A stretch of 64,000 nucleotides of DNA. Origin: Syntrophales bacterium (GTDB lineage: Bacteria; Desulfobacterota; Syntrophia; Syntrophales; UBA4778). The position numbers were made by a program, and so were the translations under genes. The stretch spans positions 40,302-104,301 of the forward strand of contig JAQTPK010000001.1 in the NCBI GenBank assembly GCA_028712885.1, read 5' to 3'. The notes beneath the pieces were generated by a model, which was not told the origin of the DNA, did not search any database, and saw only the letters and a program-made list of their open reading frames with translations. Within the stretch, counting starts at the first letter, position 1; each line of letters begins with the position of its first letter. Positions 228-55,885 of the stretch are shown in pieces.

Positions 228-317
228 AGTTCAGAGTTCGGAGTTCAGTGTTATCTTCAGGGGGCTCCTTGTCTTCTTGAGACTAAACACTGAACTCGGA
301 ACTCGGAACTGTTTTTA
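228..317. terminator. bidirectional terminator-like long hairpin built from AGTTCAG-type heptamers
   Basis: Arms at 228-252 and 286-310 are complementary at 23 of 25 positions. The hairpin is flanked by AAAATAAA on the left and GTTTTTAT on the right, and lies between convergent genes. Confidence 0.65.
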
Positions 318-746
318 TGCCCGCCCGACCGGTTCCAGATTGCGGATCAGGGAGTCCTTCTTTTTCATGTCGAGGGCGAACATTTTGTTTTTCAGCGCCT
401 CGATCATATAGGTTATTTTAGAAATAATCAGCCCTCGGATCATAAAACTGATCGCGAACGACTGCGAATCGGACAGGTTTGCGGTATCCAGAACTTCCAG
501 TGTTTCCCGGATCACCGGAGTGATTCGGCGGTTGATTTCCTCCTGGTTCTCCGTAAGTTTTCCGTCCTTCGACGCCCCCCAGACTGCCGGGACAATGTAA
601 GTAATAGGTTCAGCCAGAAGGATGTCCTTATGCGCCAGGAAAACATCGTTGGCCGTTTTGTCGAGGAGGGGCCCGATAATCCTGGACAACCTGGTTATAT
701 CTTCATTGGGTTTTTTCCCGGAAAAAATTTTTTTCAGCAGGCTCAT
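315..746 (-). CDS. hypothetical protein (143 aa)
   Basis: Clean ORF downstream of the HD-GYP gene on the same strand. I recognised no motif. Confidence 0.5.
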   Translation of the reverse strand: MSLLKKIFSGKKPNEDITRLSRIIGPLLDKTANDVFLAHKDILLAEPITYIVPAVWGASKDGKLTENQEEINRRITPVIRETLEVLDTANLSDSQSFAISFMIRGLIISKITYMIEALKNKMFALDMKKKDSLIRNLEPVGRA

Positions 747-850
747 TTCTGTTCCCCCGATTGCCCGACCTTTATTTAATGAAACAATACTGACAATAAG
801 CTTGGACCGGGATCTGCACAGGCAGGAAAAGCGGATAAGACGTTAACACA

Positions 851-2341
851 TTATAATATTTTCAGGAATGCTTCCACAATTATTTTATCGAATTGCTTGT
901 CGACGTTCCTCTCCAGCTCCTCTACCGCCTCTCCGGTTTTCATCGCCCTCCTGTAGGGCCGGTTGTTGGTCATCGCATCAAAAGAGTCGACGACGGTCAG
1001 AATTCGCGCATTCAGGGGAATTTCGCACCCGGCAAGACCGTCAGGATAGCCCCTTCCGTCCCATCGTTCGTGATGGGACCTGATTATCCTGGATTCCTGT
1101 TCGAAAAGCAGAACGGGCTTCAGGATCATTTCGCCCGTGGCGCAGTGGCCCTTAATGACGGAGAATTCATCTTCCGAAAGCCCGTCCTTCTTGAGCAGGA
1201 TCTGGTCGGGGACGGAAATCTTGCCGATGTCGTGAAGCATGCCGGCAATTTTCAGAGACTCGATATCGTGCTGGGGAATCCCAATGACCTTCGCGGTCCT
1301 GACCGCCAGATCCGTAACCCGGATGGAATGTTCTTCCGTATAATAATCCCGGGCCTGAATGGAAGCCGCCAGGGAATAGAACGTATCCATGATGCTCGAA
1401 TACGTGCTTTCGTACAGGATCTTGTTCTCCAGGTTGAGGGAAGCCCTCCGGGTGAGACTCTGGATAAAATTGAGGTCCTTCTGGGTGAACTCTATGCCGT
1501 TTCTCTTTCTCGACAGCGTCATTACGCCGAATGCCGTATTTCTGATTTTCAGGGGAACGCAGATAAGAGAATTGACCATCTGGGTATGGCCGTGCGTATT
1601 CATCAATATGGGCTCTTTTTTCCGGACCGCCTCGCGGAAAACCGAATTCAGCGAGGGGAGGATCACATGAGAGTAAAGTTCATGTATGGAGCTTTTGACC
1701 ACTTTGGGTTCGAAGCGGTCGTTTCCCGCGTCATAGAGAAGAATGGCGCAGCTCTCGCCGTTTACCAGCTTGAGAGCGAGATCCACCATGTCTTCGAATA
1801 CCTGCTCGTTGCCCTCCCTTATGCTTTCTATCCTGTCGTAAATGTAGCTTTTTTTGGAGAGCTCGGAGATTTTGTCCCTCAGCCGGAGAGAGTCTATCCG
1901 ATCCCTCTTCAGGTCGTCGCTCAGCATCTTCTTTTCCCGCAGGTAAAGGTTTACCTTGTAAAGGAGCTCATCGATGTTGAAGGGCTTGGCGATGAAATCG
2001 GCCGCTCCCGTCTTGATCGCGGATACGGAAAGATCAAGCGTGGGGAAGCCGGTGATGAGGATCATGTGAATGGCCGGGTTGATCTTCATGATCTCGTTCA
2101 GCAGATCGATCCCGCTCATGCCCGGCATTTTGATATCGCTGATAATGAGATCGCAGGGGTGATTCTGGAAGATTTCCAGGGCCTCTATGCCGTTCTCGGC
2201 CTCGAATACGGGTGAGATTTTTGAGTCCTGGAGGGCATCGATGATCATGGACCGTGTGGATTCATCGTCATCCACGACAAGGACCGTTCCGCTATCAGAA
2301 AGAGAGAATTCCTTTTCCCTGATCATCCGAGAAGAAACCAT
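851..2341 (-). CDS. response regulator with receiver, GAF-like and HD-GYP domains (putative c-di-GMP phosphodiesterase)
   Basis: Receiver motifs VLVVDDD, DLIISDIKMPGMSG and KPF. HD-GYP motifs HDIGK and HHERWDGRGYPDG. Confidence 0.9.
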   Translation of the reverse strand: MVSSRMIREKEFSLSDSGTVLVVDDDESTRSMIIDALQDSKISPVFEAENGIEALEIFQNHPCDLIISDIKMPGMSGIDLLNEIMKINPAIHMILITGFPTLDLSVSAIKTGAADFIAKPFNIDELLYKVNLYLREKKMLSDDLKRDRIDSLRLRDKISELSKKSYIYDRIESIREGNEQVFEDMVDLALKLVNGESCAILLYDAGNDRFEPKVVKSSIHELYSHVILPSLNSVFREAVRKKEPILMNTHGHTQMVNSLICVPLKIRNTAFGVMTLSRKRNGIEFTQKDLNFIQSLTRRASLNLENKILYESTYSSIMDTFYSLAASIQARDYYTEEHSIRVTDLAVRTAKVIGIPQHDIESLKIAGMLHDIGKISVPDQILLKKDGLSEDEFSVIKGHCATGEMILKPVLLFEQESRIIRSHHERWDGRGYPDGLAGCEIPLNARILTVVDSFDAMTNNRPYRRAMKTGEAVEELERNVDKQFDKIIVEAFLKIL

Positions 2342-2406
2342 CTGAGTATCCGAATGCCGATTTCCAGCTGGCGCAGCCTGGAGCGGGCGGAGAGGGGTTT
2401 GAGGAA

Positions 2407-2622
2407 TTATTCCGACTTCCCTTTCAGAATAATATCCAGGAGACTGTATGAAATCTTCTTGTAAGCCCGTTCCATCCGTTCCTGCTCGGTGGAAAGCGAT
2501 ACAATGTCATTGTACTTGCTTCCCTGAGCAGTTTCGCCCTGGGATACCTCCCTTGGTTTTACCTTATTCTGTTTGCTGTAGGCCTGCAGAATACTGTTGA
2601 CCTGATAGGGCGAAATTGTCAT
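2407..2622 (-). CDS. small hypothetical protein (71 aa), sigma-28-dependent candidate
   Basis: ORF lies 37 nt downstream of a near-consensus sigma-28 promoter. Only a weak likeness (DIVSLSTEQ) to the VxLS segment of FlgM-type proteins. Confidence 0.5.
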   Translation of the reverse strand: MTISPYQVNSILQAYSKQNKVKPREVSQGETAQGSKYNDIVSLSTEQERMERAYKKISYSLLDIILKGKSE

Positions 2623-4240: not shown

Positions 4241-4320
4241 TTTTCCACCGAGTACCCGAAATCCCGGGTGCTTGTCAAATATTTGTCGCCTCCCCCCTGT
4301 TTTTGACTCGGTTCACTCCG

Positions 4321-4420
4321 CTGTAAAAAGTGAAAAGTAAAATTGGAAAGTTATTTTCCATGAATTTCTAAGGATTAATCCCGCTTTTCGTCTTTGACGC
4401 TTTACTTTTCACTGTCAAAC
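4321..4420. repeat. inverted repeat with GTGAAAAGTAAA core
   Basis: Perfect 12-nt inverted repeat at 4330-4341 and 4401-4412, with A-rich periodic flanks. Confidence 0.6.
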
Positions 4421-4447: not shown

Positions 4448-4463
4448 TGGTATATATATTGCT
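4448..4463 (+). promoter_or_regulatory. sigma-54 (-24/-12) promoter, SPOR/TPR - histidine kinase unit
   Basis: TGGTATATATATTGCT, with GG and GC spaced exactly as in the consensus TGGCAC-N5-TTGCW. Confidence 0.7.
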
Positions 4464-8249: not shown

Positions 8250-8398
8250 AAATGCGAGAGGGTCTGATGATTACGAGGTCCAGAAGGGGGTTGCAGAAGG
8301 GCACGAATCCGGAGGGATACCTCTGGGTGCTGTGGGTGTTTTGGGTGCTCGGCGTCCTTTTGTCGCTGTGTGAGTTTTTCAGGAACATTTAGGGAAAT

Positions 8399-9748
8399 AT
8401 GAAACCGATTCTGATCGTGGACGACGAGCCCTCCATGAGGATGGCCCTGTCGGAATCGCTGGTCTGCTGCGGGTACGAAGTCGACACCGCCTCCGACGGA
8501 ACGGATGCCCTGCGCAAGATCGGCAGAAGCAGATACGAGCTCGTGATCACCGACATGAGAATGCCCGGGGCGAGCGGGATGGAAGTCCTGCGGGGCGTAA
8601 AGAATAACTCGCCGGAAACCAGGGTAATCGTGATCACGGCTTACGGAACGGTCAACACGGCGGTTGAGGCAATGAAAGAAGGGGCCTCTGACTTCATCAT
8701 GAAGCCCTTCTCCCTGGAGGACCTGGAGCTTGTGGTGAAAAACGTCATCACGGGAGTTCAGCCTGAGCCGGAAAGGGAAACCGGCGAGGCGGTCGCCGTC
8801 AAGGAGATAATTACCCGGGACAAGCAGATGCTTTCGCTGCTTGAGACGCTGAAGGCCGTATCCAGGAGCAAATCTACGGTGCTGATCCAGGGCGAGAGCG
8901 GCACAGGCAAAGAGCTCGTGGCGCGTTTCGTCCACCGGCACAGCAACAGGTCCCGTATGCCGTTCGTGGCCATCAATTGCGCGGCGGTCCCCCATAACCT
9001 GCTCGAAAGCGAAATGTTCGGGTACGAGAAAGGGGCTTTCACCGGGGCCGCGCAGCGGCGGGTCGGAAAATTCGAACTGGCCGACGGGGGAACCCTGCTT
9101 CTGGACGAGATAAGCGAAATGGACATCCAGCTTCAGGCCAAGCTCCTGAGAGCAATACAGGAGTCCGAGATTGACCGGCTGGGCGGGAAGGGTCCCGTTG
9201 CCGTGGACGTGCGGATCATTGCCACAACCAATGCGGACCTGAAAAAGGAGATACAGGAAAAGAGATTCCGGGAGGACCTTTATTACAGGCTGAACGTCAT
9301 TCCGGTCAGGATCCCGCCCCTGCGCGAGAGGATAAGCGATGTCGGCCCGCTGGCGGAATTCTTCCTGGATAAACACAGCAGGGTCAACCAGCGGAAGAAA
9401 CCGGCGCTGAAAGAAGAGGTCCTGGAAAGAATGAAGGGATACCACTGGCCGGGCAATGTGCGTGAGCTGGAGAATGCAATCGAGCGCGCCGTGCTCATGT
9501 GCGCGGGCGGTGAGATCAATCCGGACCTGCCGTTTTCGGAAGAGGGCGGACCGCAGCCGGAGGAGACCGGGGGGGGACGGGAAAGCGGCGAAGAAGCCTC
9601 GGCCGCCGGGACTCTGCGGGATATGGAAAAAAGGCTCATCTGCGACACCCTTCGCCAGGTGCAGGGAAACAAGACGCAAGCGTCAAAAATCCTGGGCATC
9701 AGCGTCAGGACAATGCGGAACAAGCTGAATGAGTACAGGATGGAATAA
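8399..9748 (+). CDS. sigma-54-dependent response regulator (REC + AAA+ + HTH; FlrC/FleR-like position)
   Basis: REC motifs ILIVDDE, ITDMRMP and MKPF. GESGTGKE, GAFTGA and a C-terminal HTH. Lies directly upstream of flgB. Confidence 0.9.
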   Translation: MKPILIVDDEPSMRMALSESLVCCGYEVDTASDGTDALRKIGRSRYELVITDMRMPGASGMEVLRGVKNNSPETRVIVITAYGTVNTAVEAMKEGASDFIMKPFSLEDLELVVKNVITGVQPEPERETGEAVAVKEIITRDKQMLSLLETLKAVSRSKSTVLIQGESGTGKELVARFVHRHSNRSRMPFVAINCAAVPHNLLESEMFGYEKGAFTGAAQRRVGKFELADGGTLLLDEISEMDIQLQAKLLRAIQESEIDRLGGKGPVAVDVRIIATTNADLKKEIQEKRFREDLYYRLNVIPVRIPPLRERISDVGPLAEFFLDKHSRVNQRKKPALKEEVLERMKGYHWPGNVRELENAIERAVLMCAGGEINPDLPFSEEGGPQPEETGGGRESGEEASAAGTLRDMEKRLICDTLRQVQGNKTQASKILGISVRTMRNKLNEYRME

Positions 9749-9902
9749 AATAGTTCAGAGTTCAGGGCCGAAACCGGTGCAGACAGGTAAATGCCCGGAA
9801 TAAGTCCATTCTGTGCCGGGATGGGAGGAAAATTTTTCCCGCTTACAAAGAGCAACGGGTTCAATTACCGGTTGGGGAAGGCAAAAGAGGGTTTCCCGGG
9901 CA

Positions 9903-9918
9903 TGGTATATGGATTGCA
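9903..9918 (+). promoter_or_regulatory. sigma-54 promoter, flgB operon
   Basis: TGGTATATGGATTGCA, 68 nt upstream of the flgB ATG. Confidence 0.7.
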
Positions 9919-9929: not shown

Positions 9930-9980
9930 GGGAAACCGGAAACCAGAACCTGAAACCTGAAACCTGAGACTTGAGACTTA
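9930..9980 (+). repeat. one-armed tandem heptamer array in the flgB leader
   Basis: GGAAACC GGAAACC AGAACC TGAAACC TGAAACC TGAGACT TGAGACT. It fills the space between the sigma-54 promoter and the flgB ATG. Confidence 0.75.
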
Positions 9981-9985
9981 AGATT

Positions 9986-11134: not shown

Positions 11135-11135
11135 C

Positions 11136-11225
11136 AAGGCAAAGGGCGAAAGGCGAAAGGTAAAAGGTGCCGGCAGCGCTCCGTGTGCCTTTAGTTTTTT
11201 GCCCTCAGCCTTGTGCCCCTTTTCC
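11136..11225. repeat. heptamer-array palindrome (AAAGGCN family), fliE|fliF
   Basis: The left arm AAGGCAA AGGGCGA AAGGCGA AAGGTAA AAGGTGC faces a right arm GTGCCTTTAG..GCCCTCAGCCTTGTGCCCCTTTT. Confidence 0.7.
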
Positions 11226-11239: not shown

Positions 11240-12796
11240 ATGGACCCACGTCAGTTCCTGTTGCAGCTCTGGAAGGGTTTCAATACGCTTGCGCCCCAGC
11301 GCAAAATGACCATCCTGGCGGTCACCGCCGCTTCCATCATCGGCATGGGCCTCCTCGTGTTCATGGCCGGGCAACACGATTACAAGGTGCTCTTTTCCAA
11401 TTTGTCTTCGGAGGACGCCGGCAATATCGTCGCGAAGCTCCAGGAGAAAAAGATACCGTACAAGGTCTCTGCATCCGGCGATTCGATCCTGGTGCCCCAG
11501 GAAAAAGTCTCCGAACTGCGGCTCGATCTGGCCGCGTCGGGCCTTCCCCAGGGGGGAGGAGTCGGCTTTGAAATCTTCGATACGAAAAGCCTGGGCGTCA
11601 CTGAGTTCGTGCAGCAGCTCAACTACCAGCGGGCGCTCCAGGGCGAGTTGTCCCGCACCATCAACAGCCTGGACGAGATCCAGCAGAGCCGGGTCCATAT
11701 AGTCATTCCCAAAAAATCCCTCTTCGCCGAAGAGCAGAAGAAGCCCACGGCATCGGTTATTCTCAAAATGAAGCCGGGCAGGAAGCTGAAAGGCCCTCAA
11801 ATCGAGGGTATTGCCCGCCTGGTTTCCAGCAGCGTCGAGGGGCTCAGTCCTTCGGATGTAATGGTAGTGGACAGCACGGGGAAAGTGCTCTCAAAAATCC
11901 AGGATGAATCGAAGATGGCGAGGATGTCGACCTCCCAGATCGAACATCAGCGCAACATCGAGAAAGACATCACGAACCGGCTCCAGACCATGCTGGAGAA
12001 GGTAGTGGGAGAGGGAAATGCCGTCGTGCGGGTGTCGGCGGATCTCGATTTCCGGATCATGGAGAAAACAGAGGAAAGATATGATCCGGAAGCGCCGGTC
12101 GTCCGCAGCACCCAGCGCCAGAGCGAAAAATCTACGACTGCGGCGCCCGCCGCCCCCGCTCCGGCATCCAAGGAGCCGGTCTCCTCCGCAACGGGCATCA
12201 ACGAAAAAACCGACGAAGTCATCAATTACGAAATCAATAAAGTCGTGAACAAGATGGTGATGCCGGTCGGGGAAATCAGGAAGCTCTCGATCGCCGTTCT
12301 GGTCGACGGCACTTATGTGAAGAACGACAAGGGCGTCGAAGAATACCAGCCGAGGTCGAAGAAGGAACTGGCCGATCTCGAAGACCTGGTCAAGAAATCC
12401 GCCGGATTCGATCCCAAGCGGGAGGATCAGGTCGTGGTCAACAATATCCCCTTCAAGAAAGTGGAAGCCGATGCCGATCTCGGCAAGGAAAGCTGGACGG
12501 AATCCGTCTCCGCATTCCTGCCCGTAATAAAATACCTGGTTCTTCTCGCCGTCGCCGTCGCATTCATCATGTTCTTCATGCGGCCGCTTATGCGCATGCT
12601 CCTCGTCAGGGGCCGCACGATTGAATTGCCGCGGGAAGTGCCGGCGGGAGCCGCCGGCGAGATAGAAGGGGCCGCCGTTCCGATGATCGGCGCGAGTGAG
12701 GGCAAGGCGTATCCCGAGGCGGATGTCGTCAAGCAGATGGCCAACACGGACGCGAGGAAATTTGCCGACCTCCTCAGAAACTGGATAAGGGAGTAA
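11240..12796 (+). CDS. fliF: flagellar MS-ring protein FliF
   Basis: Motifs YKVLFSNLSSEDAGNIVAKLQEKKIPY and QQLNYQRALQGELSRTI, plus a C-terminal TM. Start moved from 11213, which lies inside a repeat. Confidence 0.93.
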   Translation: MDPRQFLLQLWKGFNTLAPQRKMTILAVTAASIIGMGLLVFMAGQHDYKVLFSNLSSEDAGNIVAKLQEKKIPYKVSASGDSILVPQEKVSELRLDLAASGLPQGGGVGFEIFDTKSLGVTEFVQQLNYQRALQGELSRTINSLDEIQQSRVHIVIPKKSLFAEEQKKPTASVILKMKPGRKLKGPQIEGIARLVSSSVEGLSPSDVMVVDSTGKVLSKIQDESKMARMSTSQIEHQRNIEKDITNRLQTMLEKVVGEGNAVVRVSADLDFRIMEKTEERYDPEAPVVRSTQRQSEKSTTAAPAAPAPASKEPVSSATGINEKTDEVINYEINKVVNKMVMPVGEIRKLSIAVLVDGTYVKNDKGVEEYQPRSKKELADLEDLVKKSAGFDPKREDQVVVNNIPFKKVEADADLGKESWTESVSAFLPVIKYLVLLAVAVAFIMFFMRPLMRMLLVRGRTIELPREVPAGAAGEIEGAAVPMIGASEGKAYPEADVVKQMANTDARKFADLLRNWIRE

Positions 12797-12798: not shown

Positions 12799-13800
12799 AT
12801 GGATTCCCAGGAGAAAGCCGCCATCCTGCTCCTTTCCCTCGACGAAGACGTGGCCGCCCGGGTTATAAAGAATCTGACCGCCGAGGAAGTCGAGATTCTC
12901 GGCCGGTACATGGGGCGCATCGACTCCATGTCCATGGGCGAGGTGAATTCCGTAGCCAGGGAATTCTGCGATCTCGCCCGGACCAAGGGTAACATACTTT
13001 CCGTGACGGATGAATTCACGAAGAACATCTTTATCAAGGCCCTCGGCGAGACGAAGGCGCAGACGGTCCTGAGCATTATCGAAAAGGAGGGCCGCAGTTC
13101 CAGCTATAACCCGATCATAGAAAAACTGAAGGACATCGATCCCCAGATGTTGACCGATTTTACCAAAACCGAGCATCCCCAGACCATCGCGCTGATTCTC
13201 GCCCACCTCGATCCGCAGCAGGCGGCGGAAGTCCTGGAGAGCTTTTCCGTTGAAATGCAGTGCGAGGTCGCCAAGAGAATGGCGACCCTCAAGAGCGTGC
13301 CGAGCGAGCTCGTGGAAGAGATCGCCAGGACGCTCGAAAAGGAGATCACGGTCGGCAAGGTGAGCGGGAAAAAGGCCGGCGGCGCGCTGATGATGGCGGA
13401 GATCCTCAACAGGATGAGCCGCAACAGCGAGGGGACGATCATGCAGGCGCTCGACGAGGCCTTCCCGGGCATTGCCGCCGACATCCGCAGCCAGATGTTC
13501 ACGTTCGAGGACGTCCTGAAACTCGACGACAGGAGCATGCAGGAGCTGCTGAGGGAAGTGAGCACGGAGGATCTGGCCAGGGCTCTCAAGATCGTAGATG
13601 AGGAAGACAGGGGTAAAGTGTTCAGGAACATGTCCAAGCGCGGCGCCGAGATGCTGAAGGAAGATATCGAGCTCATGCCGCCGACGCGCCTCTCCGAGAT
13701 AGAAAAGAGCCAGATGGCGATCATTGAGATCACAAAGAGACTCGAGGCCGAGGGAAAGATATTCCTCGTCAGGAGCGAAGAGGAAGACAAACTTGTATGA
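12799..13800 (+). CDS. fliG: flagellar motor switch protein FliG
   Basis: Motifs EKAAILLLSLDEDVAARV, EHPQTIALILAHLDP and MFTFEDV. Confidence 0.95.
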   Translation: MDSQEKAAILLLSLDEDVAARVIKNLTAEEVEILGRYMGRIDSMSMGEVNSVAREFCDLARTKGNILSVTDEFTKNIFIKALGETKAQTVLSIIEKEGRSSSYNPIIEKLKDIDPQMLTDFTKTEHPQTIALILAHLDPQQAAEVLESFSVEMQCEVAKRMATLKSVPSELVEEIARTLEKEITVGKVSGKKAGGALMMAEILNRMSRNSEGTIMQALDEAFPGIAADIRSQMFTFEDVLKLDDRSMQELLREVSTEDLARALKIVDEEDRGKVFRNMSKRGAEMLKEDIELMPPTRLSEIEKSQMAIIEITKRLEAEGKIFLVRSEEEDKLV

Positions 13801-13950
13801 TAAATCCCAAATCCCAAGCACTAAATCCCAAACAAGCACCAATATCGAAATCCAAATGGTCGACAGTTGGATCGCGAAGCAGTGTTTGGGTATTTGAATT
13901 TAGATTTTCGAAATTGTTTGGGATTTGGAATTTGCAGTTTGGGATTTATT
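13801..13950. repeat. long imperfect palindrome of AAATCCC-type heptamers, fliG|fliH
   Basis: The left arm AAATCCCAAATCCCAAGCACTAAATCCCAAAC.. faces a right arm ..GTTTGGGATTTGGAATTTGCAGTTTGGGATTT. Shares exact blocks with 22205-22440. Confidence 0.8.
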
Positions 13951-13954
13951 ACAC

Positions 13955-14590
13955 ATGCTGATCAAGTCCGAACTGATTCAGATTATCGATACCCGCCAGG
14001 ATTTCGAGCCGGCAGACAGAATCGCCGGGGGAGGGCCGGAGCCTCCCCGCCGGGAAGAACAGAACAAGGCGGAGAGGGAAAGACAGGCAGCCTTGAAGGA
14101 GGCGTACGAAAAAGGATTTGCAGAAGGAGTGAAGGCGGGGATCGAATCCGAGAAAGCAAGATCGGCGTCCGCCGTCGCGGCCTCCTCCACGGCGCTGCGG
14201 GAGCTCGCCACGCTCCGGAAGAAAACCCTGGAACGGGTGGAGCCGGAAATCCTCGACCTGGCGGTTTCCATCGCGGAAAAAATAATTCAACGCGAAGTGA
14301 GCGCCGGCCGGGACGTCTTTGTCGGCGTTCTGAAATCAGCGGTCCGGGACATATTGGACCGGGAAGGGATCAGGATCAAGTTGAACCCCAAGGACTACCA
14401 GTATGTGATGGAAGTCGACCCGAATATCCTGGAAGGGCTCGAGGGGATCAAGAATCCGGAATTCGAATCGGACGCCGGCATCAGGGAAGGGGGCGTGGTT
14501 GTCGAGACGCGTTTCGGAGAGGTCGACGCGCGCATTGAAAAACAGCTCGAAGAAGTCAGGTCCGCCATGCACCACAAGGTGATCCCATGA
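13955..14590 (+). CDS. fliH: flagellar assembly protein FliH
   Basis: FliH-type C-terminal region between fliG and fliI. ATGA overlap with fliI. Start moved out of the repeat; the ORF-track start is 13925. Confidence 0.85.
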   Translation: MLIKSELIQIIDTRQDFEPADRIAGGGPEPPRREEQNKAERERQAALKEAYEKGFAEGVKAGIESEKARSASAVAASSTALRELATLRKKTLERVEPEILDLAVSIAEKIIQREVSAGRDVFVGVLKSAVRDILDREGIRIKLNPKDYQYVMEVDPNILEGLEGIKNPEFESDAGIREGGVVVETRFGEVDARIEKQLEEVRSAMHHKVIP

Positions 14591-15924: not shown

Positions 15925-16001
15925 TTCCTGGTTTCTCGTTTTAAGTTCAGGCAGCACTGAAACTGAAAACCAGAAACCAGAAACCTAAAAGCAGAAACCG
16001 G
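15925..16001. repeat. heptamer-array hairpin (GAAACC/AGTTCAG family), fliI|fliJ
   Basis: TTCCTGGTTTCTCGTTTTAAGTTCAG, a 6-nt loop, then CTGAAACTGAAAACCAGAAACCAGAAACC plus extra CAGAAAC units. Confidence 0.75.
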
Positions 16002-17048: not shown

Positions 17049-17127
17049 CGTAAAGCGTAAATCGTAAGGCGTAAGGAGGGGACCCTGGGACCCTGACAGC
17101 TTACGCTTTACACCTCACGCCTCACGG
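17049..17127. repeat. heptamer-array palindrome (GTAAGGC family) at convergent gene ends
   Basis: CGTAAAG CGTAAAT CGTAAGG CGTAAGG, a loop containing GGGACCCT twice, then CTTACG CTTTACA CCTCACG CCTCACG. Confidence 0.75.
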
Positions 17128-22440: not shown

Positions 22441-22449
22441 TCCTGTCAG

Positions 22450-39440: not shown

Positions 39441-39456
39441 TGGCATGTGAATTGCT
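39441..39456 (+). promoter_or_regulatory. sigma-54 promoter, flgFGAHI
   Basis: TGGCATGTGAATTGCT, 31 nt upstream of the flgF ATG. A GGAGG ribosome-binding site lies between them. Confidence 0.75.
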
Positions 39457-42614: not shown

Positions 42615-43778
42615 ATGAGAGAAGAAATCGGAAAAGGACTGGTGGTTCTGATTACCCTGGCGGTTTTTGCCGGAACGGCGGAAGCTGCGAGGATAAAGGA
42701 TATCGCCTCGATCGGGGGCGTCCGCGACAACCAGCTGATCGGGTACGGGCTGGTCGTGGGCCTGAACGGGACCGGCGACAATATAAAGAACGGCTTCACG
42801 AAGGAGTCCCTCGCCAACCTGCTCAACCGGCACGGCCTGGCCATGAAAGACAAGGATCTGAAGTCGAACAACGTCGCTTCGGTTATCGTGACGGCAAAAC
42901 TGCCGCCGTTTGCCAAGATCGGCACGAAGATAGACGTTGCAGTCTCGTCCATCGGCGATGCCAAGAGCCTCCAGGGCGGGACGCTGCTGATGACCCCGCT
43001 GAAGGGATCCGACGGAGAAGTATACGCCGTAAGCCAGGGGGCGGTTGCCATCGGGGGGTTTACGGCGGGAGGCGCCGCCGGCGGAGGGATCACAAAAAAC
43101 CATACGACCGTAGGCAGGATCGCCAACGGGGCGTTCATCGAGAAGGAACTGAAACACGACTTCTCGAAAATACGCAACCTGCTCGTCAATCTTTACCAGC
43201 CCGACTTCACGACGTCGACCCGTCTGGCCTCTGCGATCAATACTTCGATTAAGGACGCCGATGCGCGCCTGATAGACTCCACTTCCATCATGATCGCCCT
43301 TAAGGAGTCCTTCTCCGGAGATATAGTCAGACTGGTATCCATGGTGGAGAACCTGGATGTGCCCGTCGACAGCGCGGCGGTGGTGGTTATGAACGAAAAG
43401 ACCGGGACCGTTGTCATGGGGGAAAAGGTCAGGATTTCCACCGTGGCGATCGCCCATGGAAACCTGAGCATAGAGATCAAGGAAGAAAAGAAGGTGTCCC
43501 AGCCGATGCCGTTTGCGCCGCAGCCGCCGATCGGCTCCGCTCCGGCCGCGTCGGGAGGCACAGTTGTTGCTCCGGGCGGGCAGACCGTGGTGACGCCCGA
43601 AACCAAGGTCGCCGTGCAGGAAGACAAGCGCCAGATCGTAGTGGTCCCGATGGGCATAACCATCCAGGAGGTCGTCCGCGCCCTTAACGCCATCGGCGTT
43701 TCTCCCAGGGACCTGATAACGATTATCCAGGCTATCAAGGCCGCCGGGGCGCTTCAGGCCGATCTGAAAATAATATAA
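42615..43778 (+). CDS. flgI: flagellar P-ring protein FlgI
   Basis: Motifs RIKDIASIGGVRDNQLIGYGLVVGLNGTGD and a C-terminal ALNAIGVSPRDLITIIQAIKAAGALQADLKII. An alternative TTG start exists at 42603. Confidence 0.95.
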   Translation: MREEIGKGLVVLITLAVFAGTAEAARIKDIASIGGVRDNQLIGYGLVVGLNGTGDNIKNGFTKESLANLLNRHGLAMKDKDLKSNNVASVIVTAKLPPFAKIGTKIDVAVSSIGDAKSLQGGTLLMTPLKGSDGEVYAVSQGAVAIGGFTAGGAAGGGITKNHTTVGRIANGAFIEKELKHDFSKIRNLLVNLYQPDFTTSTRLASAINTSIKDADARLIDSTSIMIALKESFSGDIVRLVSMVENLDVPVDSAAVVVMNEKTGTVVMGEKVRISTVAIAHGNLSIEIKEEKKVSQPMPFAPQPPIGSAPAASGGTVVAPGGQTVVTPETKVAVQEDKRQIVVVPMGITIQEVVRALNAIGVSPRDLITIIQAIKAAGALQADLKII

Positions 43779-43810
43779 GGCGTGAGGCGTAAGGCGTAAG
43801 AGGTAAGGTG
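43776..43810 (+). repeat. one-armed heptamer array (GTAAGGC family), flgI|flgJ
   Basis: TAAGGCG TGAGGCG TAAGGCG TAAGAGG TAAGGTG, starting at the flgI stop codon. Confidence 0.7.
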
Positions 43811-43826
43811 ATTTGTAGAGGTTGCA

Positions 43827-44597: not shown

Positions 44598-44640
44598 ACT
44601 CGAACTGTTCCTGCTGCCCGATACCCGAAGCCGGATACCT
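44598..44640 (+). repeat. partial copy of TATCGGG-family sequence, flgM|flgN
   Basis: GCCCGATACCCGAAGCCGGATACC resembles GCCAGATACCCGGAGCC at 37842-37857. It is preceded by GAACTCGAACTG. Confidence 0.45.
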
Positions 44641-48888: not shown

Positions 48889-48915
48889 CGAGGCGTCAGG
48901 CGTCAGGCGTTGGGC
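48889..48915 (+). repeat. one-armed heptamer array (GTCAGGC variant), after fliW
   Basis: CGAGGCG TCAGGCG TCAGGCG TTGGGCA. Confidence 0.6.
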
Positions 48916-48950
48916 AAAAAAGAGCGGACACCTGCCGCTCATTTCGGTTT
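48915..48950. terminator. weak bidirectional terminator candidate between fliW and the convergent GT-B/TPR gene
   Basis: GAGCGG-N7-CCGCTC stem flanked by an A6 run and ATTTCGGTTT. The stem is only 6 bp. Confidence 0.3.
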
Positions 48951-52179: not shown

Positions 52180-55100
52180 CTATTCCCACATGTTTTGCGC
52201 GGCGTTTATCTGGCTCGCCAGCCAGTTGCTCTGGTTCTGAATTTTGCTCAGCGCCAGCTCCATCGCGACAAACCGGTTGATCATCTGCTCCTGCTTCCGC
52301 GCGAGCGTCGCCTCGAGCAGCTCGATCTGGTCTTCGTAACGTTCTATGCTGCCGTCAAGTGAGGTCTGCTTGAACGCGACGTAACCGTCGGTCGAATCCG
52401 TGATAAAACCCAGCTGCCGGTCAAGGATGTCGGCGATGCCGAGCGTCAAAGTGAAATCGGCGGTCTGGGCCGTCGTGCCCGTATACAGGATCGACAATCC
52501 GTCCGCGTTGTTCCCGCTGCTGGACAGCGTCAAAACCTGACCCTTCCCGGTCGCGTCGATCCCGTTGATCTTGCCCGCGACATCCATCCCCCAGACCTTG
52601 GTGGCGGCCGCATTGGTGAGTCCGAGTACGGCGCCCCCGGATTCGCTTACACCGATCATATGACCGGTGCCGTAAGAATTGTGAGTAAGGAGGACTTTGT
52701 TCTCCGCCGTTTTCGACGCAGTGATCCTCATGGCATTGCGGCCGGAGGTGAAAACGCCGACCACTCCGAAATCGAGACCCGATACTGATGAGGAATCGAT
52801 ATTCAGGGTAAGCTGGCTCGCCCCCGACTGCTTGTCCGTGATGACGATTTTCCCGCCGCTCATACTTGCCGTGACTTCATTATCGAAGGTGTCCTCGATC
52901 TCCGAAAGAAGGGCGCCGAGGTTCTGGGACGTGCCGACCGTATAAGAGCCGCTCACGGCCAACCCGTTCCGCTTGGTGCCGGTGAAACTGATTACATCGC
53001 CGTTTTCGGCGCCGGCTATATCGCTGAAGAGCGTGGCGGCGGTGAAGCCCGTATTGTTGGATCCCTGGAGCTGCTCCGTATACGTCTTTTCCATTTCCGA
53101 GTTGATCGCGTTGACCACGTCGTCGATATCCATCCCGGCGGTGAGGGTAACCGCGCCCGTTGTGAGAGCGTTCAAATCCTCGATCGTGAGTGTTTCGTCC
53201 GCGCCCAGGGTCCCTGCCAGGGAATTGGCGCCGGTCACGGTAGACCGGGTTGCCGCAGTCGATATGACGGTCGAGTACGTCCCCCCCTCCGTATTCTCCG
53301 TATGGCCGACGTACTGGAACTGAGAATTGGCGCTGGAACCGAGCGCGATGAAGAGCTTCTTCACGTCGTTGAAATTCGTTTCCAGTGCGTCCGTGAGGTC
53401 TTCGTCATCCACCGTGAGATTAACGTCGTCGTTCAGGGATATCCCGATCAGCGGCAGGCGGTTGTATCCTTCCGAAACCCCCGTGACCGTGCTCGTGACC
53501 GCGTCGATCAGCTCCGATTTTACGGTGTAGAGCGTCCCATCCCCGAACAGAATCCCTCCCGTTTTGCTCGTTTTCTCGTCGTAGCTGAACTGCTTGTTGA
53601 TGTAAGTCATAAGCGTGTTGAAGCTGGACGTCATCGTCGTGATTTTCGACTTTATCGAACTGAGGTTGCGGCTCACGTTGAGGGTCACCGTCGTGGAAGA
53701 GCTGGCGCCGGTGAGGTTCAGCGTCACACCCGCGATGACATCGTCGATGCTGTTGGAAGATTTCTGCATGGTGACGCCGTCGACGACTATTTCCGCGTCC
53801 TGCCCCGCCGTGATCTGCATATCCCGTCCCTCAGTGGTCTGGGATATCGCGCCGAAATTCAAAGTGCCCCCCCCCTGGTTGTTGGCGATAAGGGATAAGG
53901 CAAGCTGGCTGTCGCCGGCGGTGAGGTCCTTGAGGACGATCTGTCCCGCGGTGTTGCCGTCCGTGCCGTCGCTTACATAGGCGCTGACATGGTGGTCGGT
54001 GGCGTGCTTGTTGTATTGGGTTTCTATTTCCGCCAGGAGATTGCTTATCTGGTCTGTGGTCGTGATCGTATAAATGGACGAGAAGGTTTCGTAAGCGCCG
54101 GCGGCGTTATAACGTGTTCCGGATATCGAGACGGTGTCGCTGTTACTGATATTGTTGCCGAAGGAGCCGAAACTGAGGGCGGTCCCCGTACAGGTGAGGG
54201 GACCGACGCTCAACTGGCTCGCCCCCGTCGCCAGATCCTGCACGATCAGCCGGCCGGTGGAATCCAAGTACGCGTCCACGGCTGTTGCGCCGCCGTACTG
54301 GGTTTCCACCCAGCTCAGGAAATTGCTGAGCTGTTCGGTGTTGTCCGCTATGTTGTAAGTGGCGTCGACCGCTGCACCGCTGTGGGTAGTCCCCTGGACG
54401 CGGATGGAATCGCCGATGTCGATGTCGTTGGCGTCTCCGCCGGTATTGATCAGGTTCCACTGGGTCGTGGAGGAAATATAGCCGCCTCCCGCCGCAGTTG
54501 TTTGCATGTTCTGGGTGGCGCCGCGCAGAGCCCCGGTAAACAGGTCGGCGAAGGTGCTCGCGGCCGTAATGGCCGCCCCCGTTCCCAGGACGCGCTGGAC
54601 GTCCCCCGTGTGCATCTCGTTGATCTCGCCGTACGTGCCTTCCAGCACCCCCAGGATCTGGAGGACGTTGCCGTTGTCCGTGAAAGAGGTAGTGCCGCTT
54701 ACGTCTATCCGGTATTTGGTCTCCCCGCCTATTACCTCGGAGACAACGGATGCGGAAATCCCGGCGAGGGCGTCAATTTTGGCTGCGATATCGGTGATGG
54801 AATCGTCGGCAAGACTTATACTGACGGAATTGCCGCCGATCGTGACGGAAGTCGCGCCGGGCGCGCTCGTCAAGCCCAGCAGTGTTCCGACCTCGGTGCT
54901 CGAATTGCTGAAAGCACTGCTCATTGCCCCGTCGCTCGTAACGGTTTTTATCTGGACCGTCGAAGCGATGAAGCCCATGGACTGGAGGACGCCGGCGGAG
55001 GACCCCTCAAGGATTTCTATTCCGTCGACCCCTGTCTCGTCGCTCGTCAGGACGAGATGATAGTCGGTCGAGGAATGCTGGACGATGCTGGCCGTCACAT

Positions 55101-55602
55101 TGGAGGGGTCCGATCCGGTATTGAGGGCGTTTATCTTGTCCCGGATATTGGTCAGCGTATCGGTGGAAACGACCTCGATCGCTCTGCCGGAAATGATGAT
55201 GTCGCCCGAGAGGGAAAGCGCCGTCTCCTTTGCGCTGTAGCTTTTAGAGGAAATTTTTTCCGACTGGGCCGTCCTGTTCACCTTTATGGAATAGGTCCCG
55301 GAAGATGCGGAGGCGCTGGTGGAAACAGTGAACAGGTCGTCCGGGTCGGTACTCGTATTGGATGTAGTAGTCGCCGCGAACACGTTGAACGCATCTACAT
55401 CGGCCAGGGCCGCAGAGGCGGTTTTCAGCGAAAGAAGCATGGTATTCACGCTCTGCCATTCCGTCAGCTTGCTCTTGTATTCACCCTGCCGGTCCTTTAA
55501 AAGGTCGACCTTCTTCTGGTCGATGGCGATGAGCTGGTCGACAACGCTTCTCCAGTCGAAGCCGCTCACTAAACCGCTGATCATGCTCGTGCTGCTGGAC
55601 AT
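52180..55602 (-). CDS. fliD: flagellar filament cap protein FliD, unusually large (1140 aa)
   Basis: FliD N-terminus ISGLVSGFDWRSVVDQLIAIDQKKV and C-terminus ERYEDQIELLEATLARKQEQMINRFVAMELALSKIQ. Start set at MSSSTS, which has a GAGAGGAAG ribosome-binding site. Confidence 0.92.
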   Translation of the reverse strand: MSSSTSMISGLVSGFDWRSVVDQLIAIDQKKVDLLKDRQGEYKSKLTEWQSVNTMLLSLKTASAALADVDAFNVFAATTTSNTSTDPDDLFTVSTSASASSGTYSIKVNRTAQSEKISSKSYSAKETALSLSGDIIISGRAIEVVSTDTLTNIRDKINALNTGSDPSNVTASIVQHSSTDYHLVLTSDETGVDGIEILEGSSAGVLQSMGFIASTVQIKTVTSDGAMSSAFSNSSTEVGTLLGLTSAPGATSVTIGGNSVSISLADDSITDIAAKIDALAGISASVVSEVIGGETKYRIDVSGTTSFTDNGNVLQILGVLEGTYGEINEMHTGDVQRVLGTGAAITAASTFADLFTGALRGATQNMQTTAAGGGYISSTTQWNLINTGGDANDIDIGDSIRVQGTTHSGAAVDATYNIADNTEQLSNFLSWVETQYGGATAVDAYLDSTGRLIVQDLATGASQLSVGPLTCTGTALSFGSFGNNISNSDTVSISGTRYNAAGAYETFSSIYTITTTDQISNLLAEIETQYNKHATDHHVSAYVSDGTDGNTAGQIVLKDLTAGDSQLALSLIANNQGGGTLNFGAISQTTEGRDMQITAGQDAEIVVDGVTMQKSSNSIDDVIAGVTLNLTGASSSTTVTLNVSRNLSSIKSKITTMTSSFNTLMTYINKQFSYDEKTSKTGGILFGDGTLYTVKSELIDAVTSTVTGVSEGYNRLPLIGISLNDDVNLTVDDEDLTDALETNFNDVKKLFIALGSSANSQFQYVGHTENTEGGTYSTVISTAATRSTVTGANSLAGTLGADETLTIEDLNALTTGAVTLTAGMDIDDVVNAINSEMEKTYTEQLQGSNNTGFTAATLFSDIAGAENGDVISFTGTKRNGLAVSGSYTVGTSQNLGALLSEIEDTFDNEVTASMSGGKIVITDKQSGASQLTLNIDSSSVSGLDFGVVGVFTSGRNAMRITASKTAENKVLLTHNSYGTGHMIGVSESGGAVLGLTNAAATKVWGMDVAGKINGIDATGKGQVLTLSSSGNNADGLSILYTGTTAQTADFTLTLGIADILDRQLGFITDSTDGYVAFKQTSLDGSIERYEDQIELLEATLARKQEQMINRFVAMELALSKIQNQSNWLASQINAAQNMWE

Positions 55603-55624
55603 AAGCTTCCTCTCTTGAAGATAA

Positions 55625-55652
55625 TTATCGGAAAAATTTGCCCGGTTCTTTA
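55625..55652 (-). promoter_or_regulatory. sigma-28 promoter candidate, fliD-fliS operon
   Basis: Coding strand reads TAAAGAACCGGGCAAATTTTTCCGATAA (TAAA-N16-TCCGATAA), 22 nt upstream of the fliD ATG. Confidence 0.65.
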
Positions 55653-55765
55653 CCTCCGGAAGACTAAAAAGCAAAATCCCTGCCATATATAAATATTTAT
55701 TATTATTGCAGAAAAAAAGAAATAGGGGCTGGGTGTTTCATCGGTTTCAAGAGGTTCACGGCTTG

Positions 55766-55885
55766 GATAGACATATGACATTGGACATTAGACGTAAGGC
55801 GCCGGGGGCGGATATGATGCGGGAGGAATTTGCTGAAGTGGAAGATTTCTTGATCCAATGTCTAAGGTCTGAAGTCTAACGTCTC
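55766..55885. repeat. heptamer-array palindrome (GACATNN family), between the fliC terminator and the fliD promoter
   Basis: GACATAT GACATTG GACATTA GACGT faces CAATGTC TAAGGTC TGAAGTC TAACGTC, with a spacer of about 55 nt. Confidence 0.7.

Follow-up and report, generated by a model that had tools for sequence, protein, structure and literature searches.

Heptamer arrays in the gaps of a flagellar gene region

The window analysed here, a continuous stretch of 64 kb from the metagenome-assembled genome of an uncultured Syntrophales bacterium, contains flagellar genes with σ54 promoters, and many of its intergenic gaps hold tandem arrays of degenerate 7-nt units. Two-armed elements are given below without strand and the remaining arrays on the plus strand. 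The first of them, an AGTTCAG-family palindrome between convergent genes (E1, 228-310), has arms at 228-252 and 286-310 with a 33-nt spacer, and direct comparison of these arms confirmed the complementarity at 23 of 25 positions claimed in the initial annotation. Flanked by A5 and T5 runs, which as originally stated occur only here, and with an MFE of -54.8 (z -9.4), E1 alone resembles a bidirectional terminator. The divergent gap between hyp71 and a σ54 response regulator (2623-2866) contains very degenerate AAAGGCN-type arrays (E2, 2685-2768), for which Tandem Repeats Finder (TRF) reported a period of 14 with 76% matches, the best stem was 11 nt, and the lag-7 scan gave no array above threshold. 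An AAAAGTG-family palindrome (E3, 4326-4413; z -2.9) sits between a conserved GTCAAATATTTGTC motif (4274-4287) and a σ54 promoter at 4448; a perfect 13-nt inverted repeat was found in it (4329-4341/4401-4413), where a 12-mer had been described for 4321-4420, and a homologous array is present in the related locus L098. This relative also carries the AGTTCAG family at the position of two such units (9752-9765) that start 3 nt past the stop codon of the second σ54 regulator. The 5′-UTR of flgB, between its σ54 promoter (9903-9918) and its ATG (9986), is filled by a one-armed GAAACCT/GAGACTT array (E4, 9931-9983) with no reverse-complement partner above control level.

Three palindromes fill gaps further downstream: an AAAGGCN-family element in fliE/fliF (E5, 11135-11213; arms 11135-11160/11188-11213; z -4.4), an AAATCCC…GGGATTT element in fliG/fliH (E6, 13801-13948; z -7.1), with arms (13801-13857/13892-13948) that match across 57 nt, non-consensus units included, and a GGTTTC…GAAACC element in fliI/fliJ (E7, 15925-15999; arms 15925-15947/15961-15983; z -4.5), whose array continues beyond the right arm to 15999. 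A CGTAAGG-family palindrome (E8, 17049-17127; z -3.0) marks the convergent end of a flbB-like and a topoisomerase IB gene. In the flgE/motA gap, AAATCCC…GGGATTT arms (E9, 22206-22442; z -5.3) lie 175 nt apart (22206-22236/22412-22442) and are 90% complementary; the left one begins 17 nt past a conserved GTCAAATTGTTGAC motif and the right one stops 8 nt short of the motA σ54 promoter (22450). AAAGGCN…GCCTTTA arrays follow fliA (E10, 34960-35111; best arms 34967-34981/35097-35111, 115-nt spacer), a GTATCGG-family palindrome lies upstream of a fliK-like gene (E11, 37768-37853; arms 37772-37788/37837-37853; z -2.2), and a GACATNN-family palindrome separates the minus-strand flagellin gene and fliD (E12, 55768-55878; arms 55768-55792/55854-55878), next to the canonical flagellin terminator (55901-55922). 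Of the two-armed elements originally listed, the one at 2690-2768 is very degenerate (z -0.5) and those at 34960-35115 and 55766-55885 are only loosely paired (z -1.6 and -0.7, the latter reaching -2.2 on the minus strand).

Among the one-armed arrays listed, those at 9930-9980, 43776-43810 and 48889-48915 stood. A TAAGGCG array (43778-43807) fills flgI/flgJ, overlapping the flgI stop codon by a single base, and an AGGCGTC array (48891-48910) has the fliW stop on one side and a distinct canonical bidirectional terminator (48922-48940) on the other. The other two are weak, with only 2-3 degenerate units: an AAGGCTA/TAAAGAT array (36882-36905) that overlaps the stop of the upstream gene, and a CCCGATA-type array in flgM/flgN (44598-44640) that falls below the lag-scan threshold. 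At the former site, a run of Ns marks a scaffold gap in one assembly. The gene map agreed with the flagellar contexts previously assigned (fliE/fliF, fliG/fliH, fliI/fliJ, flgE/motA, after fliA and flgI/flgJ), as well as with the convergent ends (228, 17049, 48889) and the single divergent gap. Element sites include operon-internal gaps, one 5′-UTR (E4) and spacers upstream of σ54 promoters (E3, E9), and in eight gaps the first array begins 0-6 nt downstream of the preceding stop codon. We also agree that simple terminators do not explain the elements, which adjoin canonical terminators rather than substitute for them.

Period, symmetry and arm mismatches

The pattern of mirrored heptamer arrays is real and far beyond chance. 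Period-7 rows made up 20 of the 45 TRF rows in the window, 19 of them in gaps between genes. A strict lag-k scan detected six arrays, all at lag 7 and all intergenic, with none at lags 4-6 or 8-12, whereas a loose scan found 14 at lag 7, about 35 times the 0.4 obtained from composition-preserving block shuffles, and 0-5 at each of the other lags, all five lag-6 arrays being coding. Two of the 14 had initially been labelled as coding owing to spurious or over-extended ORF calls; with a proper gene map all 14 are intergenic, confined to the non-coding part that amounts to roughly 9% of the window. Eleven of the 14 arrays are mirrored within their own gap by a reverse-complement array, the truly one-armed ones being those at 9947, 43778 and 48891, and the best partner within 300 nt had a mean identity of 0.74 versus 0.55 in reverse-only or shuffled controls (p<0.001). 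Moreover, the longest inverted repeats of the entire window coincide with the listed elements (13794-13955, 217-321, 22206-22442, 15924-15984 and 17050-17111). TRF, lag scan and inverted-repeat search therefore bear out the 7-nt period, the mirrored arms and the locus-specific units, restricted to intergenic sequence. An assembly artefact was rejected, as identical element sequences recur in independent NCBI, JGI, ENA and Logan assemblies.

A signature of RNA selection was sought in the arm mismatches of 26 co-directional hairpins and none was found: next to 633 Watson-Crick pairs and 54 transversion oppositions, G·U-type and A·C-type oppositions are equally frequent (38:38). Neither strand is consistently the better-folding one. 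Mismatches accumulate symmetrically in the arms, as neutral decay predicts.

Turnover in relatives and relation to described repeats

The period of 7 nt is a property of the lineage and not of the locus. Some loci of Syntrophales and Desulfobacterales are rich in lag-7 arrays (up to 18 in 21 kb), which are nearly absent from close FliF relatives and from Helicobacter, and some lineages have lag-8 arrays in addition. Among 118 arrays of relatives there are 76 canonical units, and on unrelated metagenome contigs that carry one family, 84 further arrays represent 68 other units. When members of the same family from different loci are aligned, similarity is limited to the array itself. In metagenomes the AAATCCC…GGGATTT family occurs widely and its polarity is fixed (59 versus 2, and 37 of 37 strongly mirrored pairs), its outer units and end phase being conserved across contigs with GC contents of 40-67%; in other families the 5′ arm tends to be the G-rich one (24:9).

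Orthologous gaps did not reveal a conserved regulatory element, since in relatives the element is absent, different or replaced. Gaps without it measure 1 nt (fliG/fliH) and 8 nt (fliI/fliJ) in L099 and 46 nt (fliE/fliF) in L101; in L098 the fliG/fliH element is half-replaced, and other gaps carry another family. Gaps in which elements vary retain the σ54 promoters and a GTCAAA…TTGAC motif, and the flgE/motA gap of L099 and L101 keeps motif and promoter with the array absent. Between strains about 99.5% identical, the E5 and E7 gaps are replaced wholesale. The 82 nt upstream of the E7 swap contain three SNPs and the 120 nt downstream of the E5 swap two, compared with roughly 1 per 200 nt in the background, so that by their sequence the swaps look like short recombination imports. 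The swapped-in alleles are imperfect palindromes (72% and 88% paired) and therefore did not arise de novo at these sites. Nine elements (E2, E3, E4, E6, E8, E10, E11, 43776 and 44598) showed no change in unit number between strains 98.8-99.9% identical, and the earlier suggestion of slippage-prone tracts is thus unsupported on this timescale.

The architecture had not been recognised in the initial annotation as belonging to a described class, but the literature shows that it does. As Mrázek 2007 is summarized in later papers (PMC4679880, PMC4692102), noncoding heptanucleotide repeats are a genome-level trait and, among the long simple-sequence repeats of repeat-rich prokaryotes, the most frequent kind; the trait is reported in Burkholderia, Xanthomonas, cyanobacteria and Geobacter (PMC4679880, PMC4692102, PMC2700814). 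Xanthomonas has 70-75 inverted pairs of GGGAATC arrays per genome (Rehm 2015, PMC4692102) and Geobacter metallireducens inverted pairs of 7-9-nt repeats (Aklujkar 2009, PMC2700814), and neither report established a function. The present elements, which match no Rfam family, are a new example of this little-studied and still unexplained class. What they add is the number of unit families in one genome (about 8 in 64 kb), their gain, loss and replacement beside conserved σ54 promoters, the complete swap of two gaps between nearly identical strains with copy number unchanged elsewhere, arm mismatches devoid of an RNA signature, and the metagenomic spread of AAATCCC…GGGATTT with fixed polarity.

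Possible origins of the palindromes

Our tentative preference, which falls somewhat short of a probable conclusion, is that these palindromic repeats arise at the DNA level and occupy unconstrained spacer, RNA hairpins being a consequence. They are noncoding heptanucleotide tandem arrays, i.e., long simple-sequence repeats, which in some bacterial lineages build up in every unconstrained intergenic stretch and are usually followed by a reverse-complement copy of themselves. The arrays would be created and homogenised by replication slippage that favours steps of 7 nt, and intrastrand template switching (quasi-palindrome conversion) would produce the inverted arm and keep both arms similar; as the two keep the same order of degenerate units, the second is a copy of an already degenerated array. 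Since a unit of 7 nt would cause frameshifts within genes, elements would persist only between stop and start codons, in 5′-UTRs and in spacers upstream of promoters, and short homologous-recombination tracts may carry them between strains. Several observations count against a neutral, symmetric process, namely the fixed polarity within a family, the conserved outer units and end phase of AAATCCC elements and the reappearance of a small set of families at different gaps of related genomes. Constant unit number counts against active slippage, whose tracts should vary, and array starts so close to stop codons could reflect function rather than tight gene packing. DNA-level generation explains neither the 7-nt period nor the fixed polarity.

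The REP/BIME-like alternative of the initial annotation takes the palindromes in polycistronic flagellar mRNAs as selected intercistronic stabilisers, RNase III-type processing sites or partial terminators that would adjust how strongly neighbouring cistrons are expressed relative to each other. According to the folding models, elements would indeed form very stable hairpins in any transcript containing them (z -3 to -9.4 for 7 of 11), E5-E7 lie within one σ54 transcription unit directly after stop codons, E1 has terminator-type flanks, and fliE/fliF differs between L098 (GGCATT/AATGCC) and L082 (GGTATT/AATGTC) by two transitions after which the sense strand still pairs, as G·U; in Xanthomonas, the majority of such repeats are transcribed (PMC4692102). 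Yet the balanced mismatches leave this proposal unsupported, for E7, E8, E9 and E12 the sense strand folds less stably than its complement, one-armed arrays cannot form a hairpin, spacers of up to 175 nt are atypical, and Rfam offers no match. Moreover, elements missing from L099 and L101 where the window has them, and the reverse, are therefore dispensable, and E3 and E9, upstream of σ54 promoters, are outside the transcripts started there, although read-through from the upstream gene is possible. We thus consider selected stem-loops unlikely. On DNA-level generation, a transcript crossing an element would still fold into a long hairpin and mRNA stability or translational coupling may change; such effects on RNA are plausible from the folding models, as a side effect and not as a conserved regulatory device of flagellar operons.

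Non-autonomous mobile DNA, in the form of REPIN- or MITE-like palindromes recognised by structure and moved in trans (e.g., by a HUH/RAYT-type single-strand transposase), would account for family recurrence, presence/absence differences and fixed polarity. AAATCCC elements, with defined outer ends in many taxa, occupy fliG/fliH and flgE/motA here and fliE/fliF in L099, AGTTCAG is found at E1 here and at fliG/fliH in L101, and otherwise tight operons show insertion-like differences (1-8 nt versus 81-154 nt). HUH-type mobilisation (IS200/IS605, REPINs) is compatible with the lack of target-site duplications. It is nevertheless improbable: loops and spacers are unrelated between copies, extended copies of window elements were not found in about 2 Mb of related DNA nor the loop of the derived E5 allele in the metagenome collection, no terminal motif is common to all families, swaps extend beyond the hairpin to the entire gap, with the Shine-Dalgarno region and the final fliI codons, and the window holds no candidate transposase. 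Cooperative protein binding to tandem heptads, for which ribbon-helix-helix proteins set a precedent (one binds the 7-bp heptads of plasmid pSM19035), would let paired arrays bend or loop DNA, as in the stretch from activator sites to σ54 promoters. For the analogous Geobacter repeats, Aklujkar et al. suggested binding by global regulators or by nucleoid-associated proteins of the IHF/HU type (PMC2700814), E3 and E9 arms bracket the spacer between upstream motif and promoter, and the AAATCCC family conserves outer units and polarity. Against this, the 76 units share no core, most elements lie inside operons away from promoters, the flgE/motA gap of L099 and L101 dispenses with the array, and A-tracts spaced by 7 bp would be out of helix phase with no intrinsic bend expected, which makes protein binding very improbable. 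Scarcely credible is the folding of G-tract heptamers (GGGATTT) into a G-quadruplex or i-motif in DNA or RNA, which would concern one family only, as AAAGGCN, GAAACC, AGTTCAG, CGTAAGG, GACATNN and most others have no G-tracts; the E6 arm has only two GGG tracts, and the complementary arm would compete through a hairpin. Quadruplexes of GGGAATC and GGGGATT are documented in vitro (PMC4692102), the units of E6 and E9 conform to the (GGGANTN)n definition of Rehm et al., and the right arm of E9 contains four G3-4 tracts (22410-22441).

Mirrored heptamer arrays between genes

The gaps between genes, which amount to about 9% of the window, hold short and degenerate tandem arrays of 3-6 heptamers that mostly face their own reverse complement. 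Such period-7 mirrored arrays had been described from reading the sequence in the initial annotation, and the observation was confirmed by a repeat finder, lag scans and an inverted-repeat search, with the interpretation then attached to it being only partly supported. Tandem Repeats Finder returned a period of 7 in 20 of 45 rows, 19 of the 20 in gaps between genes, and a strict lag-k identity scan (lags 4-12) gave six arrays, all of lag 7 and all intergenic, with none at other lags. A looser scan found 14 lag-7 arrays versus 0.4 in composition-preserving block shuffles, and on a gene map made from called genes all 14 lay in gaps, so that no similar density was seen in coding or shuffled DNA; other lags gave 0-5 arrays, the five at lag 6 being all coding.

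Mirrored arms are the rule in 11 of the 14 arrays, and only those starting at 9947, 43778 and 48891 are truly one-armed. The best reverse-complement partner within 300 nt showed a mean identity of 74% versus 55% in reverse-only or shuffled controls (p<0.001), with spacers of 13-175 nt between arms, and the elements are the longest inverted repeats of the window. In the first of them (E1, 228-310) the arms are complementary at 23 of 25 positions, as originally reported, and the perfect inverted repeat pointed out in E3 (4326-4413) is also present, but extends over 13 nt instead of 12. When the gaps were folded as RNA and compared with dinucleotide shuffles, E1, E3, E5 (11135-11213, fliE|fliF), E6 (13801-13948, fliG|fliH), E7 (15925-15999, fliI|fliJ), E8 (17049-17127) and E9 (22206-22442, flgE|motA) were far stabler (z = -2.9 to -9.4), and the result was marginal for E2 (2685-2768), E10 (34960-35111) and E12 (55768-55878). 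The gene contexts originally assigned to the elements agree with the gene map. In eight gaps (E1, E5, E6, E7, E8, E10 and those of the arrays at 43779 and 48891) the first array starts 0-6 nt past the upstream stop codon, and E11 (37768-37853) begins 14 nt past it; the heptamer element is essentially the gap itself.

About eight unit families coexist in the 64 kb, most of them without G-tracts, and 76 canonical units were counted among the 118 arrays of the window and related loci. Between flgI and flgJ (43779-43826), the one-armed array TAAGGCG/TAAGAGG/TAAGGTG resembles a repeated Shine-Dalgarno sequence (TAAGGAGGTGAT), and complementary units found elsewhere, CGCCTTA and, in E8, ACCTCAC, look like the 16S rRNA anti-Shine-Dalgarno tail; this likeness, which other families do not show, may be a coincidence.

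The genes around these gaps form a flagellar cluster with two σ54 response regulators, flgBC, fliEFGHIJ, fliK, flgDE, motAB, fliLMNOPQR, flhBAFG, fliA, flgFGAHIJMNKL, fliW, fliD and the flagellin gene. Contig JAQUPW010000002.1 (MAG GCA_028716425.1) is 100% identical to the window, and the nearest FliF relatives are Syntrophales/Syntrophaceae MAGs with identities of at most 66%. The σ54 promoter consensus TGGYAY-N5-TTGCW has five matches, where 0.09 would be expected; all are on the + strand and precede the SPOR/TPR gene (4448-4463), flgB (9903-9918), fliK (18340-18355), motA (22450-22465) and flgF (39441-39456), and these five predicted promoters would define the transcription units of the cluster. 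Since σ54-type promoters are recognisable at the same places in three graded relatives (L098, L099 and L101, with FliG identities of 94%, 86% and 74%), σ54 appears to drive at least five units of the cluster. Two of the promoters are preceded, at a distance of 170-270 nt, by the near-palindrome GTCAAA-N2-KTTGWC (4274-4287 and 22175-22188), which is kept at these gaps in relatives with FliG identities as low as 74% and is a candidate site for binding by one of the window's two σ54 activators. In E3 and E9 the arms sit between this motif and the promoter, that is, upstream of the promoters.

Three other features of the cluster deserve mention. Directly after flgE there is a strong GC-rich stem-loop (22115-22162), probably an attenuator or terminator separating flgE from the motA unit; L099 and L101 have a GC-rich stem-loop at the same position, followed by a T-run in L101 only. 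A bacterial type IB topoisomerase gene (17231-18181, - strand; Pfam Top1B_N_bact and Topoisom_I) is lodged on the opposite strand between the flbB-like gene and fliK, in all strains of the species and not at that position in L098, L099 or L101. The homologue of the filament cap protein FliD (52180-55686, - strand) is unusually long, with 1168 aa, its Pfam N- and C-terminal domain matches being limited to residues 41-142 and 628-784.

Turnover in strains and relatives

Close strains of the species (L082, L083, L085, L088, L089, L096 and L097) share 98.8-99.9% identity, and among them unit number was unchanged at E2, E3, E4 (9931-9983), E6, E8, E10, E11 and the arrays at 43776 and 44598, a small sample at shallow divergence. 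The slippage-prone tracts proposed at the outset thus find no support at these nine elements. What changes instead is the whole gap. The fliE|fliF and fliI|fliJ gaps are swapped between close strains, from stop codon to ATG, for non-homologous palindromes of other families, in tracts that take in the Shine-Dalgarno region and, at fliI, also the last few codons. That a diverged allele came in with long tracts on either side was rejected, since SNPs in the coding sequence flanking the swaps are about as dense as in the background. Small clusters do exist, with three SNPs in the 82 nt that precede the fliI|fliJ swap and two in the 120 nt that follow the fliE|fliF swap, and the window's own alleles are imperfect palindromes (72% and 88% paired), so that short recombination imports fit better than synthesis in place and short recombination tracts are the likely route of the swaps. 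At both gaps the alternative alleles have homologues in L098, and at fliI|fliJ also in L101, which makes the window alleles the derived ones; a metagenome scan for a donor with the loop sequence of the derived fliE|fliF allele gave 0 matches.

In the graded relatives, L099 has no element at fliG|fliH (a gap of 1 nt) or at fliI|fliJ (8 nt), and L101 has none at fliE|fliF and carries arrays at fliF|fliG, which is a 2-nt gap in the window. At fliG|fliH of L098 one AAATCCC-type arm is kept and the place of the other is taken by a different family. Families also recur elsewhere, such as AAATCCC at fliE|fliF of L099 and AGTTCAG at fliG|fliH of L101, and even in gaps that share the conserved promoters or motif the heptamer elements are not recognisable in relatives. 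Altogether, elements are gained, lost, half-replaced and replaced, with a limited set of families persisting in the lineage.

Two local structures were noted in these comparisons. Inside the E3 homologue of L098 (about 1390-1500, in the gap that separates the σ54 regulator from the SPOR/TPR gene) there is an extra long and nearly perfect hairpin, CGTCATTCCGGCGAAAGCCGGAATCC…GGAATGACG, bracketed by GTAAAAAGTCC and GGACTTTTTAC and not built of heptamers, which may be another, REP-like element that has entered the palindrome. In strain assembly GCA_035394645.1 a 100-N scaffold gap (L096 12706-12805, window 36876-36941) falls precisely on the short array that follows the gene with its end at 36892; since a second N gap lies in the flgH coding sequence, this may be a coincidence rather than repeat-driven heterogeneity.

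Distribution and previously described repeats

Among the loci compared, lag-7 arrays are abundant in L011, L012, L015, L016, L019-L023 and L035 and essentially absent from the close relatives L001-L005 and from Helicobacter, a patchy lineage trait of some Syntrophales and Desulfobacterales loci. The richest locus, from the Desulfobacteraceae MAG Eth-SRB1 (L021), has up to 18 lag-7 arrays in 21 kb plus mirrored arrays of 8-nt units (1068-1170, 8370-8442, 11604-11678 and 18189-18265; for example GGTGAGAA / TTCTCATC). L022 and L023 likewise hold mirrored 8-nt arrays alongside 7-nt ones, so that the preferred period varies between lineages.

A metagenome scan with the query AAATCCCAAATCCCAAG gave matches in at least 120 contigs of 40-67% GC. 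Among the matches listed, a GGGATTT array occurred within 400 nt downstream in 59 of 129 and upstream in 2, the C-rich arm of the AAATCCC family coming first; under stricter criteria all 37 mirrored AAATCCC pairs listed had the same polarity. Of the 51 delimited palindromes among these matches, 22 start exactly at AAATCCCA and end in …GGGATTT, with loops of 6-141 nt. In addition, the same contigs carried at least 84 lag-7 arrays built of 68 unrelated units, and array counts on these contigs were at least 324 for lag 7, 37 for lag 6, 43 for lag 8 and 59 for lag 9. Crude ORF calling proved unreliable on the high-GC contigs, placing 22 of 56 elements inside ORFs that are probably spurious, and gene context was left out. 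The polarity is specific to each family: on the contigs listed, 24 of 33 non-AAATCCC elements have a G-rich 5′ arm (p = 0.013), opposite to AAATCCC, which together with a non-significant A versus T count of 19:14 led us to reject a universal, terminator-like rule of A-rich 5′ and U-rich 3′ edges. Readings of the units as telomere-like or integron attC-like were also discarded, since polarity or core motifs did not fit across families.

The architecture had been presented in the initial annotation as an undescribed class of element, which can no longer be sustained. Published cases of heptanucleotide arrays come from cyanobacteria, Xanthomonas, Burkholderia, Beggiatoaceae and Geobacter (PMC4679880, PMC4692102, PMC2700814). 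As summarised in later papers, Mrázek (2007) described prokaryotes rich in noncoding repeats of 5-11-nt units, heptanucleotides being the most abundant, and suggested a polymerase-slippage step of 7 nt (PMC4679880, PMC4692102). As far as those summaries go, the likeness covers the dominant 7-nt unit, the longer-than-chance arrays (14 versus 0.4 here), the noncoding bias and the patchy genome- or lineage-level occurrence, both of the latter found in the window and related loci; the difference is the variation in unit number between close strains expected of slippage, which our nine elements do not show. The long simple repeats, cyanobacterial STRR heptamers and Beggiatoaceae repeats, in the account of PMC4679880, often lie directly upstream of start codons, as here, and MacGregor (2015) reported TAACTGA direct repeats just upstream of start codons in Beggiatoaceae, with inverted sets in 1 of 170 (PMC4679880). 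In the same account these are direct arrays in which mirrored arms are exceptional, whereas ours are mirrored, short and degenerate.

Closer counterparts exist in two groups. Rehm et al. (2015) described GGGAATC and GGGGA(C/T)T heptameric repeats, typically of about four copies, in Xanthomonas and Nostoc, with about 185 (GGGANTN)n arrays per Xanthomonas genome, 89-93% of them intergenic, at a mean of 28 nt from the upstream ORF, near its stop, and under-represented between divergent genes (PMC4692102). Xanthomonas genomes have 70-75 opposite-strand array pairs in one fixed orientation, which are potential stem-loops; the repeats usually persist between the same genes, with sequence and length shifting between species, and no regulatory role was found (PMC4692102). 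With at least two units required, E6 and E9 (GGGATTT) match the (GGGANTN)n definition and the other 14 window elements do not; both, like the metagenome pairs, also keep one orientation. That study dealt with a single G-rich family, read in terms of G-quadruplexes (PMC4692102), whereas about eight families are found here in 64 kb, and the present host is an anaerobic Syntrophales MAG. In Geobacter metallireducens, Aklujkar et al. (2009) found dozens of intergenic paired sites, named global regulator binding sites (classes 1-3), in which 3-5 copies of a 7-, 8- or 9-nt unit are matched by a further set on the other strand at variable distance, one pair lying between the co-directional proB and proA; G. 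sulfurreducens lacks them (PMC2700814). The pairing of 3-5 tandem 7-9-nt units across a variable spacer (13-175 nt in the window) and the 8-nt units of L021-L023 agree with ours. However, no window unit matches the consensus MTYCTGA, GTTGCTYN or TCTCCGTS, the closest being E1 (ACTCTGA, 6 of 7). Geobacter and Syntrophales were both formerly classed among the deltaproteobacteria.

In view of these reports the architecture was already described, though obscurely, and the present case is an instance in a new lineage with several families. In literature searches no published report was found of literal GGGATTT/AAATCCC repeats or of heptamer repeats in Syntrophus, and the exact E1 sequence had no match in a set of species-representative genomes without this species. 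What is new is an anaerobic, syntrophic lineage with many coexisting unit families, mirrored arms as the rule, metagenome evidence of fixed polarity within a family, and population data over a short timescale with gain, loss and whole-gap replacement in place of slippage or conserved positions.

Origin of the arrays

Tentatively, the most likely explanation would be that palindromic heptanucleotide arrays are generated at the DNA level, pile up wherever sequence is unconstrained and pass between strains by recombination, their RNA hairpins being a consequence and no selected device. Over 57 nt the two E6 arms have their non-consensus units in identical order, so that one arm is a copy of an already degenerated array, which points to inverted duplication or inter-arm conversion of DNA followed by neutral decay. 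Selected RNA stem-loops, which the stable folds could suggest, seem unlikely: pairing selection in the sense transcript should raise G·U over A·C, and the 26 hairpins between co-directional genes of the window and relatives contain 633 Watson-Crick pairs, plus 38 oppositions of G·U type, 38 of A·C type and 54 transversions. The RNA role raised originally thus lacks its arm-pairing signature; moreover, neither strand folds consistently better, and Rfam gave no match over the whole window at the gathering threshold. In the case of REPs, a genome carries one to three conserved sequences of 20-40 nt, repeated almost identically hundreds of times and linked to a RAYT gene. Mobile elements like the REPs, BIMEs and REPINs of enterobacteria and pseudomonads share with ours the intergenic, often operon-internal palindromes just past stop codons, the mRNA hairpins, the variable presence between strains and the absence of target-site duplication. 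Here, however, a 7-nt period is common to many unit sequences and copies share the array alone: eight AAATCCC arms from four loci align over the array only, and blastn-short with all 17 window elements found no extended paralogues in about 2 Mb of related DNA. A REPIN-like origin is accordingly quite unlikely; no RAYT (HUH Y1 transposase) gene occurs within the 64-kb window. MITEs were rejected as well, the 51 AAATCCC palindromes among the matches listed having heterogeneous flanks, unrelated loops and no target-site duplication.

Binding of proteins, as proposed with IHF or HU for the G. metallireducens classes, which are sequence families at BLAST level (PMC2700814), is very unlikely here. 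G-quadruplexes could concern one family only, with four G-tracts in the right arm of E9 and two in an arm of E6, and are an extremely doubtful explanation. Apart from generation in unconstrained DNA as favoured above, the 7-nt period, the strict family-specific polarity and the outer units conserved across phyla leave room for a dedicated mechanism. Mirrored heptad arrays might then be a distinct class of element, set by structure, diverse in sequence, occurring across phyla with ends that are defined and a polarity fixed within each family, and written or propagated at the DNA level, which we consider improbable. A hairpin-recognising single-strand transposase or break-induced reiterative synthesis may be candidates, and the arrays may then be no passive by-product of slippage, with turnover as whole-gap cassettes between near-identical strains. 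Should a specific enzyme or a property of replication lie behind the polarity and the 7-nt step, a new mutational or mobile process would be shaping bacterial intergenic DNA.

Whatever their origin, the elements place hairpins of 80-150 nt inside tightly packed flagellar operons, which in relatives may be translationally coupled, judging from gaps of 1-8 nt, and they could mislead the annotation of terminators, small RNAs and regulatory sites. In agreement with the initial annotation, intrinsic terminators do not explain them in general: a consensus scan stayed at chance level and flagged no element save an incidental inner stem of E1, the only one with A/T-run flanks. Beside two of the arrays there are canonical terminators as separate structures: at 55901-55922, following the flagellin gene, a GC-rich stem with a T-run, and at 48922-48940 a bidirectional terminator.
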